Origin: an uncultured Brevundimonas sp.
GTDB taxonomy: Bacteria; Pseudomonadota; Alphaproteobacteria; Caulobacterales; Caulobacteraceae
DNA: 64,000 nt
NCBI GenBank assembly: GCA_964398675.1
Contig: CAYNNT010000001.1
Span: forward strand, 38,541-102,540
Reading direction: 5' to 3'
A program made the position numbers and the translations under genes. The first letter of the stretch is position 1, and every line of letters starts with the position of its first letter. The notes below the pieces were generated by a model, which was not told where the DNA came from, did no database searches, and worked only from the letters and a program-made list of their open reading frames with translations. Positions 42,771 to 52,874 of this stretch are shown piece after piece.

Positions 42771-44249
42771 ATGAGCGATGACCACAGCGCGCGGCTGGCC
42801 CTGCCCTATCTGGCGGCCGGGCAGATGCAGAAGCATGTCACCCTGAACGAGGCCCTGACCCGGCTGGACGCGATCGTCCAGACCGTCGTGGCCAGCCGGA
42901 CGACGACGGCCCAGCCGGGCGCGCCGGACGACGGCAGCCTGTGGATCCTGCCGTCCGGGGCGACGGGCGGCGACTGGACCACGCGGCCGGCGGGCGCGCT
43001 GATGCGGGCGGAGGGCGGCGGCTGGACGGCGGTGGAGGCCGGCGACGGCCTGATCGCCCTGGTGGAGGACGCCGACGAGGTCGTGGTGCGGCACGGCGGG
43101 GCCTGGACGCCGCTGGGCGCCCGGCTGGGCGTGGTGCAGGCGCTGACCCGGCTCGGGATCGGGACCACGGCGGACGCCGGCAACCCCTTTGCGGCCCGGC
43201 TGAACACCGCCCTTTGGACGGCGCTGGAGGTCGGGGCCGGAGGGACGGGCGACCTGAGGCTGACGCTGAACAAGGAGGCGGCCGGCGATGTCCTGTCGCT
43301 GCTGTTCCAGAGCGGCTGGAGCGGCCGGGCGGAACTGGGGCTGGTCGGGGATGACGACCTGAGGCTCAAGGTCAGCGCCGACGGTTCGAGCTGGCGCGAC
43401 GCCCTTGTCGTCGATCGCGCCACGGGCCGGATGACCCACGCGCTGGGCGCGGGGCGCCGGGCCGTGACGGCCTTCACCACCAGCGGAAGCTTCGCCGTGC
43501 CGGCATGGGCGCGCAGCATCGAGGCGGTCGCGGTCGGCGGCGGCGGCGGTGGCGGGGCCGGGGCCTTCGGTGCGTCCGGGTCCCGCTTCGGCGGAGGCGG
43601 GGGCGGCGCCGGCGGGACCAGCCGGTGTGAATGGGCGGCGGACCTGCTGGGCGGAACGCTGGATGTGGTTGTAGGGGCCGGCGGCGCGGGCGGCAGCGCG
43701 GCAGCGGGCTCGAACGGCGGCAACAGCACGGTCTCCATGGGCGGAACCCGGGTGCTGGCCGCGGGCGGCGGCGGCGGGGGCGGGCGGGGCGACAGCACGG
43801 GCGGGGCGTCGGGAACGCCGGGCGTGGGCGAGCTGGTCGCCAACGCGGGCGGCGCTTCCAGCGTGACGGCGACGGGCGGGACGGGCCGAAGCCTTGACCG
43901 GCCGGACGGGCCGGGCGGCGGCGGGGCCGGCGGCGGTCTGGACGGCGCGGGGGCGGCGCGGGCGGGCGGCGCCGGCGGCGACGGCGGCATCGTGGCGGTC
44001 AGGGCCCTTGGCGGCGCCGGCGGGTCAGGCGCGGCGGGGTCGGCGGGCACGGCGGCGCCCCAGCCGACCCTGCACTGGGCCGGAGGCGGCGGGGGAGGCG
44101 GCGGCGCGGCGGCTGCCGGGTCAGGCCACGCGGGCGCTGCGGGCGGGTCGATCGGCGGCGGAGGCGGCGGTGGCGGAGCCGGCGTCACCGCGGGCGGCAG
44201 CGGCGGCGCGGGCGCGCCCGGCGTCGTCTGGCTGGTCGCCTTCGGATGA
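42771..44249 (+). CDS. DUF2793 domain protein with Gly-rich C-terminal domain (phage/GTA fibre or head-spike-like)
   Basis: RLALPYL..GQMQKHVTLNEAL.RLD; SLLFQSGWSGRAELGL.GDDDL; polyglycine tracts ending GGAGAPGVVW. Confidence 0.88.
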   Translation: MSDDHSARLALPYLAAGQMQKHVTLNEALTRLDAIVQTVVASRTTTAQPGAPDDGSLWILPSGATGGDWTTRPAGALMRAEGGGWTAVEAGDGLIALVEDADEVVVRHGGAWTPLGARLGVVQALTRLGIGTTADAGNPFAARLNTALWTALEVGAGGTGDLRLTLNKEAAGDVLSLLFQSGWSGRAELGLVGDDDLRLKVSADGSSWRDALVVDRATGRMTHALGAGRRAVTAFTTSGSFAVPAWARSIEAVAVGGGGGGGAGAFGASGSRFGGGGGGAGGTSRCEWAADLLGGTLDVVVGAGGAGGSAAAGSNGGNSTVSMGGTRVLAAGGGGGGGRGDSTGGASGTPGVGELVANAGGASSVTATGGTGRSLDRPDGPGGGGAGGGLDGAGAARAGGAGGDGGIVAVRALGGAGGSGAAGSAGTAAPQPTLHWAGGGGGGGGAAAAGSGHAGAAGGSIGGGGGGGGAGVTAGGSGGAGAPGVVWLVAFG

Positions 44250-44401
44250 GCCCCGCCATGAGCCCCGCCGATCCCTGGCTGCTGGATGATGAGGTCTGGG
44301 ACAGCCCCGGCCGCCTGACGGACGCCGACCTGTTCACCCACGCCAGCCCCGGCTGGCGTCGCGGCGACGCCCCCCTTGATGATCCGGAGGACGACCGATG
44401 A
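44246..44401 (+). CDS. 51-aa acidic Trp-containing small protein
   Basis: MSPAMSPADPWLLDDEVWDSPGRLTDADLFTHASPGWRRGDAPLDDPEDDR; ATGA overlaps at both ends. Confidence 0.6.
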   Translation: MSPAMSPADPWLLDDEVWDSPGRLTDADLFTHASPGWRRGDAPLDDPEDDR

Positions 44402-44673
44402 GCGCGCCTTCAACGCCCGGGGCCCCGTTGCTGGCGGAGGGACGCTGGCTGTGGCGCAGGCTGTATGTCTTCGCGACCAGCGGCGCGGCCTGGCTGCTGC
44501 TCGACCGTCTGATCGAGGTGACGCCTCCCGAGGCCGCGCCGCGGCTGGCGCAGGGGCTGATGGCGCTGCTGGCGCTGGTGCTGGTCCTCTATCTGGTGGC
44601 GCCGACGGCCCAGCAGCTGATCGCGACGCTGGCGGTGCTGCGGCCCCGGATCGACGAGGAGGGCCGGTCATGA
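44398..44673 (+). CDS. putative holin-like 2-TM protein
   Basis: 91 aa, two hydrophobic segments, charged C-terminus, directly before the endolysin; GGAGG SD. Confidence 0.55.
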   Translation: MSAPSTPGAPLLAEGRWLWRRLYVFATSGAAWLLLDRLIEVTPPEAAPRLAQGLMALLALVLVLYLVAPTAQQLIATLAVLRPRIDEEGRS

Positions 44674-45053
44674 GCTTTCGTCTGTCCGGGCGATCCCTCA
44701 AGCGGCTGGACGGCGTGCATCCGCGCCTTGTCGCCCTGGTGCGGGAGGCCGCGGCCCTGAGCCCGGTGGAGTTCATGGTGACCGAGGGCCTGCGCACGCC
44801 CGAACGCCAGGCCGCCCTCGTCCGGGCCGGGGCCAGCCGCACCCGGCGGTCGCGCCACCTGACCGGCCACGCGGTCGATGTCGCGGCCCTGGTCGACGGC
44901 CAGGTCCGATGGGACTGGCCGCTGTATCCGCGCATCGCCGCGGCGTTCAAGGCGGCGGCGGCGCGTCAGGGCACGGCCATGATCTGGGGCGGCGACTGGA
45001 CCAGCCTGAGGGACGGCCCCCATTTCGAGCTGGACCGGAAGGCCTTCCCATGA
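44670..45053 (+). CDS. M15 family (L-Ala-D-Glu) peptidase endolysin
   Basis: EGLRT.ERQ, SRHLTGHAVD, WGGDW..LRDGPHFEL. Confidence 0.92.
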   Translation: MSFRLSGRSLKRLDGVHPRLVALVREAAALSPVEFMVTEGLRTPERQAALVRAGASRTRRSRHLTGHAVDVAALVDGQVRWDWPLYPRIAAAFKAAAARQGTAMIWGGDWTSLRDGPHFELDRKAFP

Positions 45054-45529
45054 AGACGCCGGCGCTATTGCGGACCCTGACCCCATGGGGCTGGGCGCTG
45101 GTCGTGGCCGGCGTGCTGGCTGCGGCGCTGATCGGCCTGCACGGACTGGGCTTTCGCTGGGACCCCTTGAGGCTGGCCGAACGGCGGCTGGCGGCGGCCG
45201 AGGCCGGGGCTTCAGCCGCCGCCGCGGACGCCGCCGCGCGCCGACTCGAGGTCGACGGCGCTGCGGACCAGACGCGGCGTCTTGAAGTACGTCACCAACA
45301 GACCGTGGCCGTGGCGCGGGAGACCGCGCGGGCCACGACACAGGCCAGGAGGGCCGATGATGCCGATACCCCGCTGGACCCTGATCGCGTGGCTCGCCTC
45401 GCCGGTCATGACCGCGAGCTGTGCCGCCTCGCTCCCGCCGTCTGCGGAGCCGCCCCGTCTGACCCTGCCGGAGGCGGCGACCAGACCCTGCGTTCTGGAG
45501 CGACTGCCGCAAGCGCCGACCCTCGCTGA
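45050..45529 (+). CDS. Rz-like inner-membrane spanin (putative)
   Basis: One N-terminal TM, then Ala/Arg-rich coiled coil and two C-terminal Cys; follows the endolysin. Confidence 0.65.
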   Translation: MKTPALLRTLTPWGWALVVAGVLAAALIGLHGLGFRWDPLRLAERRLAAAEAGASAAAADAAARRLEVDGAADQTRRLEVRHQQTVAVARETARATTQARRADDADTPLDPDRVARLAGHDRELCRLAPAVCGAAPSDPAGGGDQTLRSGATAASADPR

Positions 45530-45683
45530 CCTTGAGGTCGCCTATGTCGAGCGGGGGGCGCGGCTGGTCGCCTGCGAGAACGCCCGGGCTTCTGCGGTCG
45601 AGACCCTGACGGCCGAGCGGGCCTTGCAGGATCGGTGGCGGCGCGCGAGCGGAGCGCGGCCCGGGGCGGTGATCCGGCCCTGA
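45357..45683 (+). CDS. Rz1-like outer-membrane spanin lipoprotein (putative)
   Basis: Overlaps the Rz-like gene in the +1 frame; AGGAGG SD; lipobox-like TASC; Pro-rich with two further Cys. Confidence 0.65.
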   Translation: MMPIPRWTLIAWLASPVMTASCAASLPPSAEPPRLTLPEAATRPCVLERLPQAPTLADLEVAYVERGARLVACENARASAVETLTAERALQDRWRRASGARPGAVIRP

Positions 45684-45728: not shown

Positions 45729-45875
45729 CCGGCACGACCTGCCCACTACCCGGCAGAAGGTGCCTGGCCTTGGCAGGTTTTGCCGGAAGGCAGGGGCCGT
45801 AGAGCCAAAAAACCTGAGGAAAAACAACAATGGAGGCGGGGCCGTCGATGTCTGGCGGGTGGCCCTGTCCTTGCT
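45729..45875 (+). promoter_or_regulatory. three ftr-like enhancer sites plus sigma54 promoter of flagellin 1
   Basis: GGCA-N5-TGCC at 45731, 45752, 45772; TGGCCCTGTCCTTGCT (GG-N10-GC) 45860-45875. Confidence 0.8.
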
Positions 45876-45951
45876 CAATGGAAACCCGAGCAGAACGCTC
45901 CTGACCGCCAAAATGGCGTCAGACATGTCGAAGACACAGAGGACAGCCAAA

Positions 45952-46644
45952 ATGGCTAACAGCATCAATACGAACGTCGGCGCCATGGTTGCGCTGCAGA
46001 ACCTGAACGCGACCGGCCGCGACCTGAAGGTCACGCAGGACCGCGTCAGCACCGGCCTGAAGGTCGGCTCCGCCAAAGACAATGGCGCGATCTGGGCCGT
46101 GTCCCAGAACCAAAAAGCCAACATGGGCGTGTTGAACGCCACCCGTAACGCGCTGCAGCGGACCATGTCCGTCAATGACGTGGGTCTGGCCGCCGGCGAC
46201 ACCATCATGGACGCCCTGCGTCAGATGAAGGAACTCGCCGCCGGTCCGTCAAGCGCCGCCCGGGATGCGGATCTGGCTGCCCTGAGGGCCGAGGTCGTCG
46301 CCGCCAAGGCCGCTGCTGTCTTTGACGGCACCGCCGCCCTCAGCGGTCTGACCCTGACCATCAGCGCCGCACCGACCGCCGGTGAAATCGACGCCGATCT
46401 GGCCTCGGCCATCACCGCCCTGCAGGCCCTCGGCACCTCGGCCAAGTCGACCGAGCGCTCGCTGACCTTCAACGACAAGCTCCAGGACGCCATCGAATCC
46501 GGCATCGGCAACCTGGTCGACGCCGACCTGGCCAAGGAAAGCGCTCGCCTGACGGCTCTGCAGACGAAGCAGCAGCTGGGCGTGCAGGCGCTCTCGATCG
46601 CCAACCAGTCGGGCTCGATCCTGCTCGGCCTGTTCCGCAACTAG
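45952..46644 (+). CDS. flagellin, short form (230 aa)
   Basis: SINTNVGA..ALQNL, STGLKV.SAKDN, LVDADLAKESA, ALSIANQ. Confidence 0.95.
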   Translation: MANSINTNVGAMVALQNLNATGRDLKVTQDRVSTGLKVGSAKDNGAIWAVSQNQKANMGVLNATRNALQRTMSVNDVGLAAGDTIMDALRQMKELAAGPSSAARDADLAALRAEVVAAKAAAVFDGTAALSGLTLTISAAPTAGEIDADLASAITALQALGTSAKSTERSLTFNDKLQDAIESGIGNLVDADLAKESARLTALQTKQQLGVQALSIANQSGSILLGLFRN

Positions 46645-46719
46645 GTCCGGGAACGCCCGCGGCCTCCTGACCCGAGGACATCCCGGCCACGGCCGGTCAA
46701 ACGATCCGATGATCAAACG

Positions 46720-46748
46720 AAGGGTCCCCGCGCATGCGGGGGCCCTTT
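46720..46748 (+). terminator. intrinsic terminator after flagellin 1
   Basis: AAGGGTCCCCGC-gcat-GCGGGGGCCCTTT. Confidence 0.7.
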
Positions 46749-46874
46749 GTCGATGGGACCTGGCTCACCCGGAGAGGGGGCGCGACCCGGCCAGACGCGC
46801 CGGAATTCGGGCCGTGAGGCGGTCGGACGCGCCGGATCCTTGTCCCGGAGCGCTGCCGTATTGAAGCCCTCCGT

Positions 46875-47023
46875 CCCGGCACGACCTGCCGACCACCCGG
46901 CAAATACTGCCCGAAGCCCGGCAGATTCTGCAGGGCCAACAACGTGATGAACAAGAACTAACGTAGCAAATTCAATGGTGGCCGCTCTGGCATGGGGGGG
47001 CGCCGGATGGCTCCGTCCTTGCT
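46875..47023 (+). promoter_or_regulatory. three ftr-like enhancer sites plus sigma54 promoter of flagellin 2
   Basis: GGCA-N5-TGC(C/A) at 46878, 46899, 46920; AT-rich spacer; TGGCTCCGTCCTTGCT 47008-47023. Confidence 0.8.
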
Positions 47024-47098
47024 TGTACCCCAGCGGGCAGAATGCTCCCGATCGCCAAAACGGCGTCGGAAATGTCGAAGACAAAAAGGACAGCCAAA

Positions 47099-47788
47099 AT
47101 GGCTAATAGCATCAACACGAATGTCGGCGCCCTGGTGGCGCTGCAGAACCTGAATCAGACCAGCCGCGATCTGGCTATGACGCAAAACCGCGTCAACACT
47201 GGTCAGAAGGTCTCGTCCGCCAAGGACAACGGGGCGATCTGGGCTACGGCCGAGAACCAAAAAGCCAACATGCAGGTGCTCAACACCACCCGCAACACGC
47301 TGCAGCGGACCCAGTCCGTGAATGACGTGGGTCTGGCCGCCGGCGACACCATCATGGACGCCCTGCGTCAGATGAAGGAACTCGCTGCCGGTCCGTCCAG
47401 CACGGCTCGCGACGCCGACCTCAACGCACTCAAGGCCGAAGTCGCTGCCGCCAAGGCGGCCGCGGTGTTCGACGGCACGGCTGCGCTGGGTTCGCTGACC
47501 ATGACCTTCGCCGCCACCCCGACCGGCGCTGAAGTCGATACCGCGATCACCAACGCGATCTCGGCCCTGCAGACCCTCGGCACTTCGTCCAAGTCGACGG
47601 AGCGTTCGCTGGCCTTCAACGACAAGCTCCAGGACGCCCTGGAAGCCGGCATCGGCAACCTGGTCGACGCCGACCTGGCCAAGGAAAGCGCCCGCCTGAC
47701 GGCTCTGCAGACGAAGCAGCAGCTGGGCGTGCAGGCGCTGTCGATCGCGAACCAGTCGAGCTCGATCCTGCTCGGCCTGTTCCGCTAA
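47099..47788 (+). CDS. flagellin, short form (229 aa)
   Basis: Same N- and C-terminal flagellin motifs as copy 1. Confidence 0.95.
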   Translation: MANSINTNVGALVALQNLNQTSRDLAMTQNRVNTGQKVSSAKDNGAIWATAENQKANMQVLNTTRNTLQRTQSVNDVGLAAGDTIMDALRQMKELAAGPSSTARDADLNALKAEVAAAKAAAVFDGTAALGSLTMTFAATPTGAEVDTAITNAISALQTLGTSSKSTERSLAFNDKLQDALEAGIGNLVDADLAKESARLTALQTKQQLGVQALSIANQSSSILLGLFR

Positions 47789-47905
47789 CCACCGGGGAAG
47801 TGGGCGTAGCCGCTCGCGGCTCCGCCCGCTTCGCCAAACCCTGAGCAGAACGCTCCCGGCAGCCAAAACGGCGTCGGACATGTCGAAGACAAAAGGACTA
47901 TCCCA

Positions 47906-48595
47906 ATGGCTAACAGCATCAATACGAACGTCGGCGCCCTGGTGGCGTTGCAGAACCTGAACCAGACCAGCCGCGATCTGGCTGTCACGCAAAACCGCGT
48001 GAACACGGGTCAGAAGGTCTCGTCCGCCAAGGACAACGGGGCCATCTGGGCCACCGCCCAGAACCAAAAAGCCAACATGCAGGTGCTCAACACCACCCGC
48101 AACACGCTGCAGCGGACCCAGTCCGTGAATGACGTGGGTCTGGCCGCCGGCGACACCATCATGGACGCCCTGCGTCAGATGAAGGAACTCGCCGCCGGTC
48201 CCGCCAGCACGGCTCGCGACGCCGACCTCGCCGCCCTGCGGACTGAAGTCGTCGCTGCTCAGGCCGCGGCTGTCTTCGACGGCACGGCCGCTCTCAGCGG
48301 TCTGACCCTGACCATCGCCGCCGCTCCGACCGCCGGTCAGATCGACGCCGATCTGGCCTCGGCGATCTCGGCCCTGCAGACCCTCGGCACTTCGTCCAAG
48401 TCGACGGAGCGTTCGCTGGCCTTCAACGACAAGCTCCAGGACGCCCTGGAAGCCGGCATCGGCAACCTGGTCGACGCCGACCTGGCCAAGGAAAGCGCCC
48501 GCCTGACGGCTCTGCAGACGAAGCAGCAGCTGGGCGTGCAGGCGCTGTCGATCGCGAACCAGTCGAGCTCGATCCTGCTCGGCCTGTTCCGCTAA
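47906..48595 (+). CDS. flagellin, short form (229 aa)
   Basis: Same N- and C-terminal flagellin motifs as copy 1. Confidence 0.95.
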   Translation: MANSINTNVGALVALQNLNQTSRDLAVTQNRVNTGQKVSSAKDNGAIWATAQNQKANMQVLNTTRNTLQRTQSVNDVGLAAGDTIMDALRQMKELAAGPASTARDADLAALRTEVVAAQAAAVFDGTAALSGLTLTIAAAPTAGQIDADLASAISALQTLGTSSKSTERSLAFNDKLQDALEAGIGNLVDADLAKESARLTALQTKQQLGVQALSIANQSSSILLGLFR

Positions 48596-48689: not shown

Positions 48690-48974
48690 ATGAATGCAGA
48701 TGCAACGATAAGGGCGGTCCCGGCAGTCACTGTCGAAACACCGCTGCAGTCCGGAGCCGATCAGGAATCCAGATCCAGGACCGCTGAGGATGCTGAACGC
48801 CAGGCCCGCTATCGGCTGGTGATCGAGCAGGGCCCCCGCGCGGGGTCTTTTGTCTACAAGACGCTGGACCGGGAAACCGGCGAGATCGTCCGGCAAATGC
48901 CGAGTGAAGAAGTGCTCAAGTTGAAGGAGCGCAACGACTACGGAGTCGGCGCAGTGATCAACACCACCGCCTGA
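48690..48974 (+). CDS. FlaG-like protein
   Basis: FVYKTLDRETGEIVRQMPSEEVL matches the FlaG pattern; located among flagellins. Confidence 0.75.
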   Translation: MNADATIRAVPAVTVETPLQSGADQESRSRTAEDAERQARYRLVIEQGPRAGSFVYKTLDRETGEIVRQMPSEEVLKLKERNDYGVGAVINTTA

Positions 48975-49093: not shown

Positions 49094-49918
49094 ATGACCA
49101 ACAGCGTCCACTCCAACTCTTCCGCGCTCATCGCGCTGCAAAACCTCAATCAGATCAGTGATCGGATGGCGGCCACGCAGAACCGCGTCAGCACGGGCCT
49201 GAAGGTTGGCGGAGCCAAGGACAATTCGGCGGTCTGGGCGATTGCACAAAATCAGCGCGCCGACCTGGGGGCGCTCGGGGCGGTGAAGACCAGCCTCGAC
49301 CGGGCCACCTCGCTGGCCGACGTGACCCTGGCGGCCGGGGAGGCGATCTCCGATCTGATCATCCAGATGCGCCAGAAGGCCGTGGCCGCCTCCGACCTGT
49401 CGCAGACGCCCGAATCCCGCGCGGCCTACAACGACGACTTCCAGAGCCTCGTGCGGTCGGTTCAGCAGTTCGCGGACAGCGCCTCGTTTGACGGGGTGAA
49501 CCTGCTCGACAACTCCCTGACGGCGCCGCTCGACTTCCTCGCCAACGTCGATGCCGTCGACACGATTTCGATCGACCCGCACAATTTCACCGAGGCCGGT
49601 CTGGGGCTCGACACGCAGAACCTGCTTCTGCCCGCCGCCGCGGCGACCGCGCTCGGCGTGATCGACACGGCGCTGGCGACGGTGAACTCCGGCCTGGCCT
49701 CGCTGGGCGCGCAGGCCAAGCAGATCGAAACGCACAATACCTTCGTCTCCAAGCTGATGGACTCGCTGGAAACCGGCATCGGCAAGCTGGTCGACGCTGA
49801 TCTGGCGAAGGAAAGCGCCCGCCTTCAGGCGTTGCAGGTGCAGCAGCAGCTGGGCGCGCAGGCGCTGTCGATCGCGAACCAGGCCCCGCAGATCATCCTG
49901 TCGCTGTTCAAGAGCTAG
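49094..49918 (+). CDS. flagellin, normal length (274 aa), divergent from the other three
   Basis: STGLKV, ASFDGVNLL, LVDADLAKESARL. Confidence 0.95.
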   Translation: MTNSVHSNSSALIALQNLNQISDRMAATQNRVSTGLKVGGAKDNSAVWAIAQNQRADLGALGAVKTSLDRATSLADVTLAAGEAISDLIIQMRQKAVAASDLSQTPESRAAYNDDFQSLVRSVQQFADSASFDGVNLLDNSLTAPLDFLANVDAVDTISIDPHNFTEAGLGLDTQNLLLPAAAATALGVIDTALATVNSGLASLGAQAKQIETHNTFVSKLMDSLETGIGKLVDADLAKESARLQALQVQQQLGAQALSIANQAPQIILSLFKS

Positions 49919-50133: not shown

Positions 50134-50168
50134 GGTTGGCGGGTCACAATGACGGCCGGGAGCCGCCT

Positions 50169-52874
50169 GTGATCAACAACAGTTATCTGCTCGGGTTGTA
50201 CGGAGGGACCGCGGACACCTCGTCCACGTCCAGCGGAACCACGACCACGACCCGGAAGACGCAGCCGACCGCGCCCTGGTCAGCGGGGGCCAAGGTTCCC
50301 GAGCAAAGCGCCCTGGTGCGGGCGGCGCTGGCGGGAAACCGCCTGATCAATGAAGGCACCGAACGTCTCGACGTGCCGGGCGCATCGACGGACTATCGAA
50401 AGCTGTTCGCTCTCTACAAGGGCCTGGACTCCCTGACGGCGCTCGCCACCCGGGCGGACCAGCGGGGCGTGAGCGCCAGCGAGACGGCCCAGATCCGCCA
50501 GCGCTTCAGCGCCGGGCTTTCAGAAGTCAGCGGCTATCTGCGGACGGCCGGCTTTGACGGCATCCGTCTGGTGGAGGGCGTTTCGTCCACGACCGCCAAG
50601 ACGACCGCCTCTGTGCCGCGCGATGCGACCCGCATCGTCACCCGGCCGATCCACGACGGGCCGCTGACGTCATCCGTCGCTTCCTTCGAGGGCGATGTCC
50701 GGTTCGAGATCACCATCGGAACCCTCAACGGCGACACGACGATCCCGATCGATCTGGCGGATATGGGAGCCCAGACCCGTACGTTCGACGACGTGCTGTC
50801 CCACATCAACGGCAAGCTGGCCGACGCCGGCGTCGCCACCCGGTTCGGACGGGAAAACGTCACCGGCCCGCCGCGCACGATCAAGGCGGGGACCAAGACG
50901 ATCACCCTGCCGGCGCGGTCCGACCAGTGGGCGCTGGTGATCCAGGGCACGAATGTCGAATCCGTCCGGTTCGCGACGACGCAGAAGTCCGACGCCGTCT
51001 ACGTCGTCCAGGGCACGGGGAGCGGGGGCGGGAACGAACTGCTGAAGTTCCAGAGCGACGGCGGCGCCGCCCCTGAACCGCTCGATATCGGCCTGCAGAC
51101 CGGATGGGTCGCCGGTCGCGCGTCGCAGACCGCCCTGCCGAAGGGGGTCGAGACGGTGCGGGCGAGCGCGGTCGCCGCGGACGGGTCGTTGTGGATGGTC
51201 GCGGACGTCGAGTCCGCGCCGGGCGAACAGCCGGTGAAGGGCGAGCGCGACGTCGCCCTGATGAAGTTCGACCCGTCGGGCCGTCTGGTGGCGACGCGCA
51301 TGCTCGGCGCCGCGGATACGGCCAGCGGCTATGCGATCGCCATCGCCGACGACGGGCGGGTGGCCGTGGCGGGATCGGTCACGGGCGCGCTCGAGGCCGG
51401 GGTCAAGCCGGCCGACGCCGATCTGGCCGACAGCTTCGTGACCGTCTTCGACGGGGCGGGCGAAGAGCTCTGGACCCAAAGGCGTGGCGCCAAGGCGGCC
51501 GACGAGGCCACGGCCGTGTCTTTCGGCGCAGATGGCAGGGTCTATGTCGCCGGACGGGCGAAGTCGTCCATGCCCGGCGCGTCCGGACTCGGCGGCTGGG
51601 ACGGGTATCTGCAGGGCTTTACCGCCACCCAGGCGCACAGTCTGGCGCCGTTGGTCGGCGCGGCGGTTTCGATCGACCAGTTCGGAACGGCCAGCGACGA
51701 CAGCGTCAGGGCGATGACGACCGAGGGCACGTCCATCTACACCGCCGGAGTCGAAAGCGGCCGGGTGGTGGTGCGCCACTATACGCCCGACGTCGACGGC
51801 CGGCCGAGCCTGGCGGCAGTCCGGGATCTGGGCGCCGCCAGCGGGGACGTTACGGGGATCGCCGTCGCCGATGGACGGGTCGTCCTGACCGGCACAACCA
51901 GCAACGCCGCCCTCGACATCGCGACGGTGAACACAGCCCATTCCGGCGGCACAGATGCCTTCGTGGCGGTGCTGGAGGCCGATCTTTCGGCCAGCGCCTC
52001 GGATCGTCTGACCTATGTCGGCGCCGCCGGGGACGACACCGTTTCGGACATGAAGGTCCACGACGGGAAGGTCTGGCTGACCGGGCTCGCCGACCGGCCG
52101 CTCGGGGCCAAGGCGGAGGATCCCCGGCAGGGCTATCTGACCCGGCTGGACCCGCTGACGGGGGCGGTCGAATGGACCCGGACCTGGTCCGGCGCGAACC
52201 AGCAGGCCGCGCCCCTTACGCTTGCCGTCGCCACCGACGGCGCGAGCGTGCTGGACCGCCTGGGTCTGCCCGATGGTCGTGTCTCGGCCGGGGATTCCAA
52301 GATCCTGACGACCGTGACGGCGGCCCGGCCCGGCGACCGGTTCTATGTGACCCCCGCCGACGGCAGCCGGTCGCGGGCGGTCACGATCGACGCCAGGGAT
52401 ACGCTGCAGACCCTGGCCAAGAAGATCGAACAGGCGAGTTTCGGCCAGTTGAGCGTGACGGTGGTCACCGACACGCTCAAGAGCGCCACCGGAGAACTGA
52501 TCACCAGCGGACGCCCCCAGAGGCTGTCCATCGTTCCGCGGACCGGGCGGGAGGGCGCCACCCTGACCAGCGGCGAAACCGGCCGGGATGCGCTTTCGGC
52601 CCTGGGCCTTTCGCCCGGCCTGATCAGCCCCAAGCCGGGAACCGGCGACCTGAAGATCTTCGCCATGGCGCTGCCGGCCTCCCTGTCGCTGTCCGGCGCG
52701 GATGACATCAAGGCGTCGATCAAGTCGCTGCAGGACGCCATGACCGTGGTCCGGAGCGCCTATCGCGGGCTGGCCCCCGGCGCGAACAAGCCGGCGGTCA
52801 CCGGCGCGGCGCCGGCCTATCTCACGGCCCAGCTCGCCAACTACCAGGCGGCGCTCGCCCGCCTCGGCGGATAG
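50169..52874 (+). CDS. FlaEY-like flagellar protein with beta-propeller repeats
   Basis: About 900 aa, no signal peptide; repeated G-x-A-x-D/DAFV blade motifs; amphipathic C-terminal helix; flagellin locus. Confidence 0.7.
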   Translation: MINNSYLLGLYGGTADTSSTSSGTTTTTRKTQPTAPWSAGAKVPEQSALVRAALAGNRLINEGTERLDVPGASTDYRKLFALYKGLDSLTALATRADQRGVSASETAQIRQRFSAGLSEVSGYLRTAGFDGIRLVEGVSSTTAKTTASVPRDATRIVTRPIHDGPLTSSVASFEGDVRFEITIGTLNGDTTIPIDLADMGAQTRTFDDVLSHINGKLADAGVATRFGRENVTGPPRTIKAGTKTITLPARSDQWALVIQGTNVESVRFATTQKSDAVYVVQGTGSGGGNELLKFQSDGGAAPEPLDIGLQTGWVAGRASQTALPKGVETVRASAVAADGSLWMVADVESAPGEQPVKGERDVALMKFDPSGRLVATRMLGAADTASGYAIAIADDGRVAVAGSVTGALEAGVKPADADLADSFVTVFDGAGEELWTQRRGAKAADEATAVSFGADGRVYVAGRAKSSMPGASGLGGWDGYLQGFTATQAHSLAPLVGAAVSIDQFGTASDDSVRAMTTEGTSIYTAGVESGRVVVRHYTPDVDGRPSLAAVRDLGAASGDVTGIAVADGRVVLTGTTSNAALDIATVNTAHSGGTDAFVAVLEADLSASASDRLTYVGAAGDDTVSDMKVHDGKVWLTGLADRPLGAKAEDPRQGYLTRLDPLTGAVEWTRTWSGANQQAAPLTLAVATDGASVLDRLGLPDGRVSAGDSKILTTVTAARPGDRFYVTPADGSRSRAVTIDARDTLQTLAKKIEQASFGQLSVTVVTDTLKSATGELITSGRPQRLSIVPRTGREGATLTSGETGRDALSALGLSPGLISPKPGTGDLKIFAMALPASLSLSGADDIKASIKSLQDAMTVVRSAYRGLAPGANKPAVTGAAPAYLTAQLANYQAALARLGG

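Follow-up and report, generated by a model that had tools for sequence, protein, structure and literature searches.

In the structural studies consulted, every D1 domain described (as in FljK, Hag and BC1658) is made of three helices and a beta-hairpin. In FljM of Caulobacter crescentus, the hairpin (residues 145-160), the glycosylated Thr143, 158 and 163 and Phe177 have been delineated, and the hairpin is termed critical for filament quaternary structure (PMC10369909). In Bacillus and Pseudomonas filaments it meets ND1b in the 5-start direction and ND1a/CD1 in the 11-start direction (PMC5643327), and it bears inter-subunit bonds in FljK (PMC10369909, 10.1101/2020.07.27.223248); in FljK N130S, the N151 hairpin loop moves by 2.5 Å and the filament is straightened (10.1101/2020.07.27.223248). 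BC1658 (273 amino acids, aa) and BC1659 (249 aa) of Bacillus cereus are described as the smallest natural flagellins (PMC5895748). Here we analysed a stretch of 64,000 nucleotides (the window) belonging to a 2.9-Mb Brevundimonas assembly (G000; 99.4% complete, 173 contigs, assigned to the genus by its named homologues), in which three genes, termed fla1, fla2 and fla3, encode flagellins of only 230, 229 and 229 aa next to a 274-aa flagellin encoded by fla4. We consider it probable that fla1-3 encode FljK-type flagellins devoid of 40-44 D1 residues, which likely form the bulk of the working filament and probably represent an unglycosylated surface type kept by phage pressure.

Three intact genes and the segment missing from D1

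The presence of three intact ultra-short flagellin genes, proposed in the initial annotation, was confirmed by open reading frame (ORF) analysis and alignment. None of the reading frames contains an internal stop and, relative to the fla4 product, all three proteins lack 8 residues before FDG and 36 residues after FDG, as had been claimed. Both terminal Pfam domains were recovered in fla1-3: Flagellin_N (PF00669) at 41.9-44.3 bits (cut-off 26.6), with a match ending at profile position 112-114 of 139, and Flagellin_C (PF00700) at 43.1-48.1 bits (cut-off 23). Together with a predicted helical fold comprising ND0/ND1a/ND1b and CD1/CD0, these domains identify the proteins as bacterial flagellins. 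In the contigs of four DNA runs, which stem from four studies (of 23 runs listed; one of the four may be the window's own source), no insertion or deletion was seen across the flagellin stretch, and pieces from these runs bridged the short middles of fla1 (X1-X3), fla2 (all four) and fla3 (X6). As the four runs agree without indels and the pieces bridge the short middles, an assembly artefact is excluded. Among the 120 best matches, a list ordered by likeness to the query, 107 of the 112 complete sequences were 228-240 aa long.

By aligning a 272-aa Brevundimonas paralogue to FljM, the large gap of the short proteins was found to correspond to FljM 136-189, which includes the beta-hairpin 145-160, Thr143, 158 and 163 and Phe177. 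An AlphaFold2 model of fla3 built with 61 short sequences (predicted local distance difference test score, pLDDT, 82) contained helices at 2-34, 41-96, 102-121 and 143-228 and no strand of at least 3 residues, and a control model of a 269-aa allele made with the same pipeline contained strands at 147-150 and 156-159 (local pLDDT ~70). The alignment and the two models bear out the initial view that the missing part covers the D1 beta-hairpin region. The description of D1 as truncated can be refined: compared with the 269-aa allele, the closest long one, the loss comprises 32 residues in and beside the hairpin and a further 8 at the ND1a/ND1b tip, but the helical bundle is retained, since the predicted CD1 starts 87 residues from the C-terminus in both models. 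The total D1 loss amounts to 40 residues relative to the 269-aa allele and 44 relative to fla4. The top fold matches of the fla3 model were Caulobacter FljK/L/M/N (Z 14.2-14.8, about 50% identity). The short flagellins are thus predicted to have lost the D1 beta-hairpin and part of the helix tip, and their modelled fold is a variant that departs from the canonical D0-D1 architecture of three helices and a beta-hairpin.

Gene inventory, selection and control elements

Only four Flagellin_N genes were found in G000, the three short genes and fla4. The latter clusters (100/99) with the third gene of a Caulobacter-type cluster in which the remaining two genes are matches to FljL and FljK and, as in all 16 FljJ-type genes compared, GTTAAC is present upstream and a sigma54 site and leader are absent. 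This combination of clade, GTTAAC and absent sigma54 site and leader characterises fla4 and not fla1-3, which group in trees with FljK/L/M, apart from FljJ. FljJ is regulatory and FljJ alone does not support motility in C. crescentus (PMC7591256; 10.1101/2020.07.27.223248). As the sole other flagellin of the genome is of this regulatory type, the short genes likely build the swimming filament. No full-length (264+ aa) FljK-type gene was found in the 12 further genomes checked that carry only short structural copies (group A, defined below; 0/13 including G000). These 12 comprise four single-contig, 100%-complete genomes (G269, G272, G105, G266); in five of them, sub-cut-off matches of 315-342 aa are probably FlgL. 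In G000, NCBIfam/Pfam matches to flgBCDEFGKL, fliEGHLMNP, flhA, flbD, flaF and flbT (fliG and fliM being cut by contig ends) cover the hook, rod, junction, switch, export and regulator classes. A separate FlgL-like gene of 310 aa comes after flgK on contig C4; fla3 itself gave no FlgL match at E 1e-8 and does not occupy a flgK-flgL position.

The ratio of nonsynonymous to synonymous substitution (dN/dS) was 0.167 overall among 22 distinct 229/230-aa genes (Nei-Gojobori, between-locus pairs), with 0.26 in the new linker and 0.13-0.16 in D0 and CD1, the most conserved parts. On a codon score relative to 22 ribosomal-protein genes, fla1-3 ranked at percentiles 98.0-99.2 of 2,029 ORFs and fla4 at 54; the plain codon adaptation index separates them less (76-82 and 42). 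In relatives, the short middle is also bridged by contigs from four RNA libraries, among them a contig that spans fla3 from leader to stop, which weakly suggests expression. Combined, the gene inventory, dN/dS and codon bias agree with the initial proposal that fla1-3 are likely the major expressed flagellins and not pseudogenes, and on this basis it is probable that the short flagellins build the filament.

Each short gene is preceded by one copy of the leader motif, and the 2.9-Mb genome contains no copy beyond these three; pattern matches placed sigma54 and ftr-like sites ahead of fla1 and fla2 only, as had been annotated. The features of the locus are the following, all on the + strand:

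45750..45785, +: ftr-like half sites upstream of fla1, which we take to be of the FlbD enhancer type (pattern match CCGGCAGA...TTTGCCG)
45859..45875, +: sigma54-type -24/-12 promoter of fla1 (GTGGCCCTGTCCTTGCT, 93 nt before the ATG)
45886..45951, +: conserved 5' leader of fla1 with a small hairpin (motif match, fold)
45952-46644, +: fla1, 230-aa FljK-type flagellin without D1 beta-hairpin (ORF, Pfam, tree, codon use)
46330-46386, +: linker of fla1 equivalent to that of fla3 (alignment)
46720..46749, +: GC-rich hairpin ending in TTT, terminator-like, 3' of fla1 (fold; not called by terminator scan)
46897..46925, +: ftr-like half sites upstream of fla2 (pattern match)
47007..47023, +: sigma54-type promoter of fla2 (ATGGCTCCGTCCTTGCT, 92 nt before the ATG)
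47099-47788, +: fla2, 229-aa FljK-type flagellin without hairpin (ORF, Pfam, tree, codon use)
47477-47533, +: linker of fla2 equivalent to that of fla3 (alignment)
47796..47905, +: intergenic hairpin and conserved leader of fla3 (pattern match, fold)
47906-48595, +: fla3, 229-aa FljK-type flagellin without hairpin, the modelled copy (ORF, AlphaFold2, fold search)
48284..48340, +: 19-residue linker (fla3 127-145) replacing FljM 136-189 (alignment, model)
48690-48974, +: flaG (PF03646 over cut-off)
49094-49918, +: fla4, 274-aa FljJ-type (regulatory, hook-proximal) flagellin with a hairpin-length insert (tree, upstream sites, codon use)

The sigma54-type sites of fla1 and fla2 follow the consensus TGG-N8-TTGC (pattern match only), and that of fla1 is the same site as found ahead of the 269-aa allele in locus L081. 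Upstream of fla3, neither a sigma54 site nor ftr-like half sites were seen by pattern match; fla3 is likely co-transcribed with fla2, as it has no sigma54 site of its own. The fla2 and fla3 genes are 93-100% identical in DNA, falling to 72-84% over the tip and linker, as could arise if gene conversion acted on the termini and the exposed part diverged. Just upstream of fla1, positions 42771-45683 of the window hold a phage- or gene transfer agent (GTA)-like module with a DUF2793/minor-tail protein, a small membrane protein, an M15 endolysin and two ORFs that may be spanin-like. Parts of this module flank the flagellin cluster in relatives and could therefore bear on cassette exchange. After fla4, positions 50136-52874 encode a 912-aa beta-propeller-like protein with 36% identity to a 939-aa protein found at the same place in the Caulobacter-type cluster; it is possibly FlaY, named as a FliD-analogous polymerisation factor (10.1101/2024.09.25.614892). 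The conserved leader of fla1 is likely a FlbT-regulated leader, by analogy with the role described for FlbT at a flagellin leader (PMC8306008, PMC7591256).

Distribution, allele exchange and glycosylation

The initial annotation had overlooked that the short genes form a multi-species family with probably two origins, swapping with long alleles and mostly without FlmG. At E 1e-40, 60 of 276 Brevundimonas genomes matched fla3. They fall into group A (229-241 aa, all structural copies short; 22 genomes), group B (243-248 aa alternating with 265-272-aa paralogues; 23 genomes) and group C (254-262 aa with a shortened insert; 13 genomes), two being unclassed (G102, G190); genomes without a retrieved locus were assigned from the span of their match. 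Candidate isolates with only short FljK-type genes beside the FljJ-type gene are Brevundimonas sp. VNH65, NPDC092305 and MF30-B. When the tree was restricted to the terminal columns, group A formed one clade (98/92), group B was nested among the 265-272-aa paralogues, and a single clade of A and B was rejected (approximately unbiased test, p=0.018). Left out of trees and counts were the second cluster of L086, a frameshifted L062 copy, near-duplicates above 93% and, for trees only, sequences with X; the IQ-TREE run left out 63 of 144 rows. From these trees, hairpin loss in group B is probably independent of that in group A. Clusters of group B alternate long and short genes, for example 272-247-267-245 (L066-L073, L084, L092-L095), which suggests mixed or segmented filaments; named loci of this group are those of B. 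vesicularis NCTC11166 (L131) and B. mediterranea DSM 14878 (L169).

Positions 67, 71 and 75 of ND1a (FljK 68, 72 and 76) share one helical face, and the same positions are changed in both groups. Gly at position 71 was found in 0/50 group-A and 0/33 group-B sequences compared with 24/24 and 150/153 hairpin-length K-types, and Val/Ile at position 75 in 0/83 A/B versus 174/177 hairpin-length (C/D) sequences; the changes in A/B are mostly to polar residues (FljK G72 to T/Q/N/S, I76 to N/A/T). At L066, a 267-aa copy has the N-terminus of its 245/247-aa neighbours and yet retains S-G-V, which argues that the ND1a change tracks the hairpin and not ancestry. Co-loss of N130 was also considered as a signal and rejected, as hairpin-bearing Brevundimonas already have Gly there. 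Two group-A genes, L063:7954 (253 aa) and L074:5779 (247 aa), keep the hairpin-less ND1a residues but carry a longer insert, unrelated in sequence, that seems to have regrown secondarily.

Short forms outside Brevundimonas are rare in the samples searched. Of 317 family genomes from other genera, 2 gave a match at E 1e-36, each of 257 aa. In the class sample (401 genomes), one-piece matches outside G000 among the best 150 of 275 rows were G640 (239 aa) and G955 (257 aa, twice). For the phylum sample, 146 of the 150 rows listed (of 418) had open frames of at least 273 aa and four were shorter; among 122 complete-looking representatives within the best 150, one was 241 aa long, two 159 and 182 aa, and the rest at least 260 aa. 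The 239-aa flagellin of G640 (L229:7427-8146) comes from another alphaproteobacterial family and is apparently the only filament flagellin of its genome; it keeps a short hairpin-like segment and is trimmed instead in the linker and CD1 start, and it adjoins a tetratricopeptide repeat (TPR)-GT41 glycosyltransferase. The 241-aa flagellin P0130, in a 50%-identity cluster of its own, has Gln at position 71 and is apparently hairpin-less, a possible third loss. Sequencing or assembly errors may account for three further variants: the frameshifted short flagellin L062:6825-7709, a 752-aa frame that partly resembles flagellin and is situated between two flagellin genes (L089:3355-5613), and the 207-aa P0063, from which part of ND1a is gone. 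Second, divergent flagellin loci lie off the main cluster in L086 (G001; 297-316 aa) and at G152:C1:882220. A search for a phage-encoded copy of a short flagellin found none, and the ESM Atlas returned ordinary flagellin clusters only.

In a FastTree tree of the downstream 912-aa neighbour, group-A loci were scattered over several host clades and four 269-type loci were nested among 229-237-type loci. Flanking DNA is 78-88% identical to that of 269-type loci, the identity breaking off inside the flagellin genes, and close kin whose flanks are 81-88% identical in DNA carry 269-aa alleles behind the same promoters. A second swap was seen between L072 and L066, whose flanks are 88-92% identical with different cassettes. 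Judged from these alignments, exchange of long and short alleles at one locus resembles serotype exchange. The runs in which the locus is best covered are metagenomes from bioreactors, aquaculture, freshwater sediment and aquatic sources, so that altered TLR5 recognition, as initially proposed, or host immunity is an unlikely driver.

O-glycosylation by FlmG with pseudaminic or legionaminic acid (Pse/Leg) is a trait of C. crescentus and B. subvibrioides, and FlmG and LegI are required for motility in the latter (10.1101/2022.03.25.485807). In the 99.4%-complete, 173-contig G000 genome, no match was found to NeuB or to the FlmG query, which was a 598-aa protein from the Caulobacter-type cluster, taken to be FlmG from its size, TPRs and position. 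FlmG was present in 2/22 genomes of group A, 0/23 of group B, 3/13 of group C and 139/218 others, and was hence absent from 43 of the 45 A/B genomes; NeuB was present in 8/60 matching genomes versus 134/216 (the other genomes in both tallies include one unpublished genome, G165). This distribution suggests that glycosylation loss probably came first, freeing the hairpin region.

Weighing the explanations and comparison with known flagellins

In the mechanism that we propose, the short genes would be transcribed under sigma54/FlbD and controlled by FlbT/FlaF as in Caulobacter, G000 possessing flbD. The FljJ-type subunit would be laid first, adjoining the hook, and the short subunits would then polymerise through intact D0 coiled coils and ND1a/ND1b/CD1 helices; helix-helix 5-start and 11-start contacts would be kept and hairpin contacts lost, the ND1a face likely once under the hairpin now being polar. 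We infer assembly, waveform and absence of glycan. The fuller picture, towards which we lean only slightly, is that several Brevundimonas lineages swim with a supercoiled filament consisting nearly entirely of a hairpin-less, glycan-less subunit of 229 residues with a three-helix D1, with the hairpin lost at least twice, a convergent surface and alleles traded as phage serotypes. If true, hairpin contacts would be dispensable, supercoiling would arise from D0 and helix-helix contacts alone, and the 229-residue subunit would be the smallest natural flagellin.

That the short genes might be pseudogenes or result from assembly collapse could be suspected from an assembly in 173 contigs and near-identical tandem genes. 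Equal lengths from independent runs and closed genomes, together with a dN/dS of 0.17, refute this explanation and leave it virtually no probability. It is improbable that the hairpin has only shrunk, the 19-residue linker (LSGLTLTI) preserving the canonical contacts as one strand or a mini-hairpin, either by itself or together with a neighbour: the linker does show an alternating L-T-L-T-I, model block 131-140 has a pLDDT of 80, the lowest within D1, and inter-subunit strands cannot appear in a monomer model, but the same 19 residues must also bridge the distance back to CD1, the linker varies freely among group-A members, and the ND1a face is altered in both losses. Little credence is likewise given to the short proteins being exported flagellin homologues that polymerise poorly, the filament being a FljJ-type stub only and the short proteins serving as decoys, matrix or adhesin. 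Conservation is highest in D0 and CD1 (dN/dS 0.13-0.16), the short genes hold the fljK/L positions and promoters of long alleles, and no other structural flagellin was found in 13 of 13 genomes checked, with the flagellar machinery kept; on the other side stand the quaternary role ascribed to the hairpin in Caulobacter (PMC10369909) and the existence of Vibrio flagellin-homologous proteins that stay outside filaments (PMC6692518).

An unlikely though not negligible explanation accepts that the filament is built and takes economy or relaxed constraint as the driver: after FlmG was lost, the hairpin region would have drifted shorter, with ~15% of residues saved per subunit (23.6 versus 27.0 kDa). 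It draws on the 43 of 45 A/B genomes without FlmG and on graded lengths of 229-316 aa in a largely FlmG-less lineage versus 274-278 aa at the FlmG-bearing loci retrieved. However, long and short alleles are interleaved among close kin and exchanged as cassettes, the same lineage also extended flagellins to 284-316 aa, and group-B genomes hold both forms side by side. We prefer phage pressure as the driver because the swapping resembles serotype exchange and because flagellin composition affects phiCbK adsorption in Caulobacter (10.1101/2020.07.27.223248).

Several points weigh against a working, phage-selected filament of hairpin-less subunits. Polymerisation into an 11-protofilament filament that drives swimming is deduced from gene inventory, selection and codon use, and phage as a driver, like the altered phage recognition proposed initially, from allele swapping only; the thinner or differently packed filament of the initial proposal is likewise conjectural (filaments of FljK/L/M are 132-134 Å in diameter). 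The RNA contigs may include DNA, X15 covering 29/30 bins. Given the bonds borne by the FljK hairpin and the 2.5 Å loop shift that straightens the filament, its loss could give a straight or fragile filament. The placing of ND1a positions 71 and 75 under or against the hairpin is drawn from helical spacing, and in FljJ-type proteins both positions are Ala (in 101 and 96 of 106) although the insert is retained, so that the V/I rule is not universal. The test of A and B as a single clade was set after the first tree had been seen, and gene conversion between paralogues can blur the tree. FlmG is kept in two group-A genomes (G091 and G266) and many FlmG-less genomes retain the hairpin; these exceptions in both directions make glycan loss neither necessary nor sufficient, and kin are not independent in the FlmG tallies.

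The genus name Brevundimonas refers to short-wavelength flagella. Hairpin loss was considered as the cause of this trait and rejected, as B. diminuta ATCC 11568 (L157) has flagellins of 268, 267 and 274 aa. The natural, selected and cultured size series (~269-273, 254-262, 243-248 and 229-241 aa) makes the role of the hairpin in packing and supercoiling directly testable, and the mixed filaments expected in group B and the natural allele pairs are tools for analysing what flagellum-binding phages recognise.

The closest described proteins are FljK/L/M/N/O of C. crescentus (PDB 6XL0, 8UXJ, 8UXK, 8UXN, 9CEF; 273 aa; best sequence match, E 4e-58), which share with the short proteins a D0-D1-only organisation, a sigma54 promoter, an fljJ neighbour and flaF/flbT. 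The short proteins differ by the absence of the hairpin (145-160), of three of the five glycosylated Thr (143, 158, 163), of Phe177 and of 8 tip residues, and by Ser in place of His214; FlmG and NeuB were not found in G000. BC1658 and BC1659 likewise consist of D0-D1 without outer domains, but BC1658 retains the beta-hairpin, and the short proteins are 19-20 aa below BC1659, the shortest flagellin named in the literature consulted, as expected from the initial claim that they are shorter than known flagellins; they lower the known size floor. Outer-domain-deleted E. coli FliC constructs (from 266 aa) are motile with shorter filaments (10.1101/2024.12.02.626473); these are engineered and lack D2/D3, not part of D1. 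A literature search, with subscription journals and supplements mostly outside its scope, brought up neither a description of flagellins that are hairpin-less or about 230 aa long nor data on the motility of the named isolates, and database entries label these sequences plainly as 'flagellin'. The short flagellins are a genuine and so far undescribed variant, in architecture, of a known protein.

Flagellin alleles of the H-antigen type are exchanged in enterobacteria. The Brevundimonas locus is similar in that alternative surface types lie behind conserved termini at one locus (for the context of H-antigen exchange, see PMC7018530), and unlike it in that the variable part is a core element of D1 and not D2/D3.

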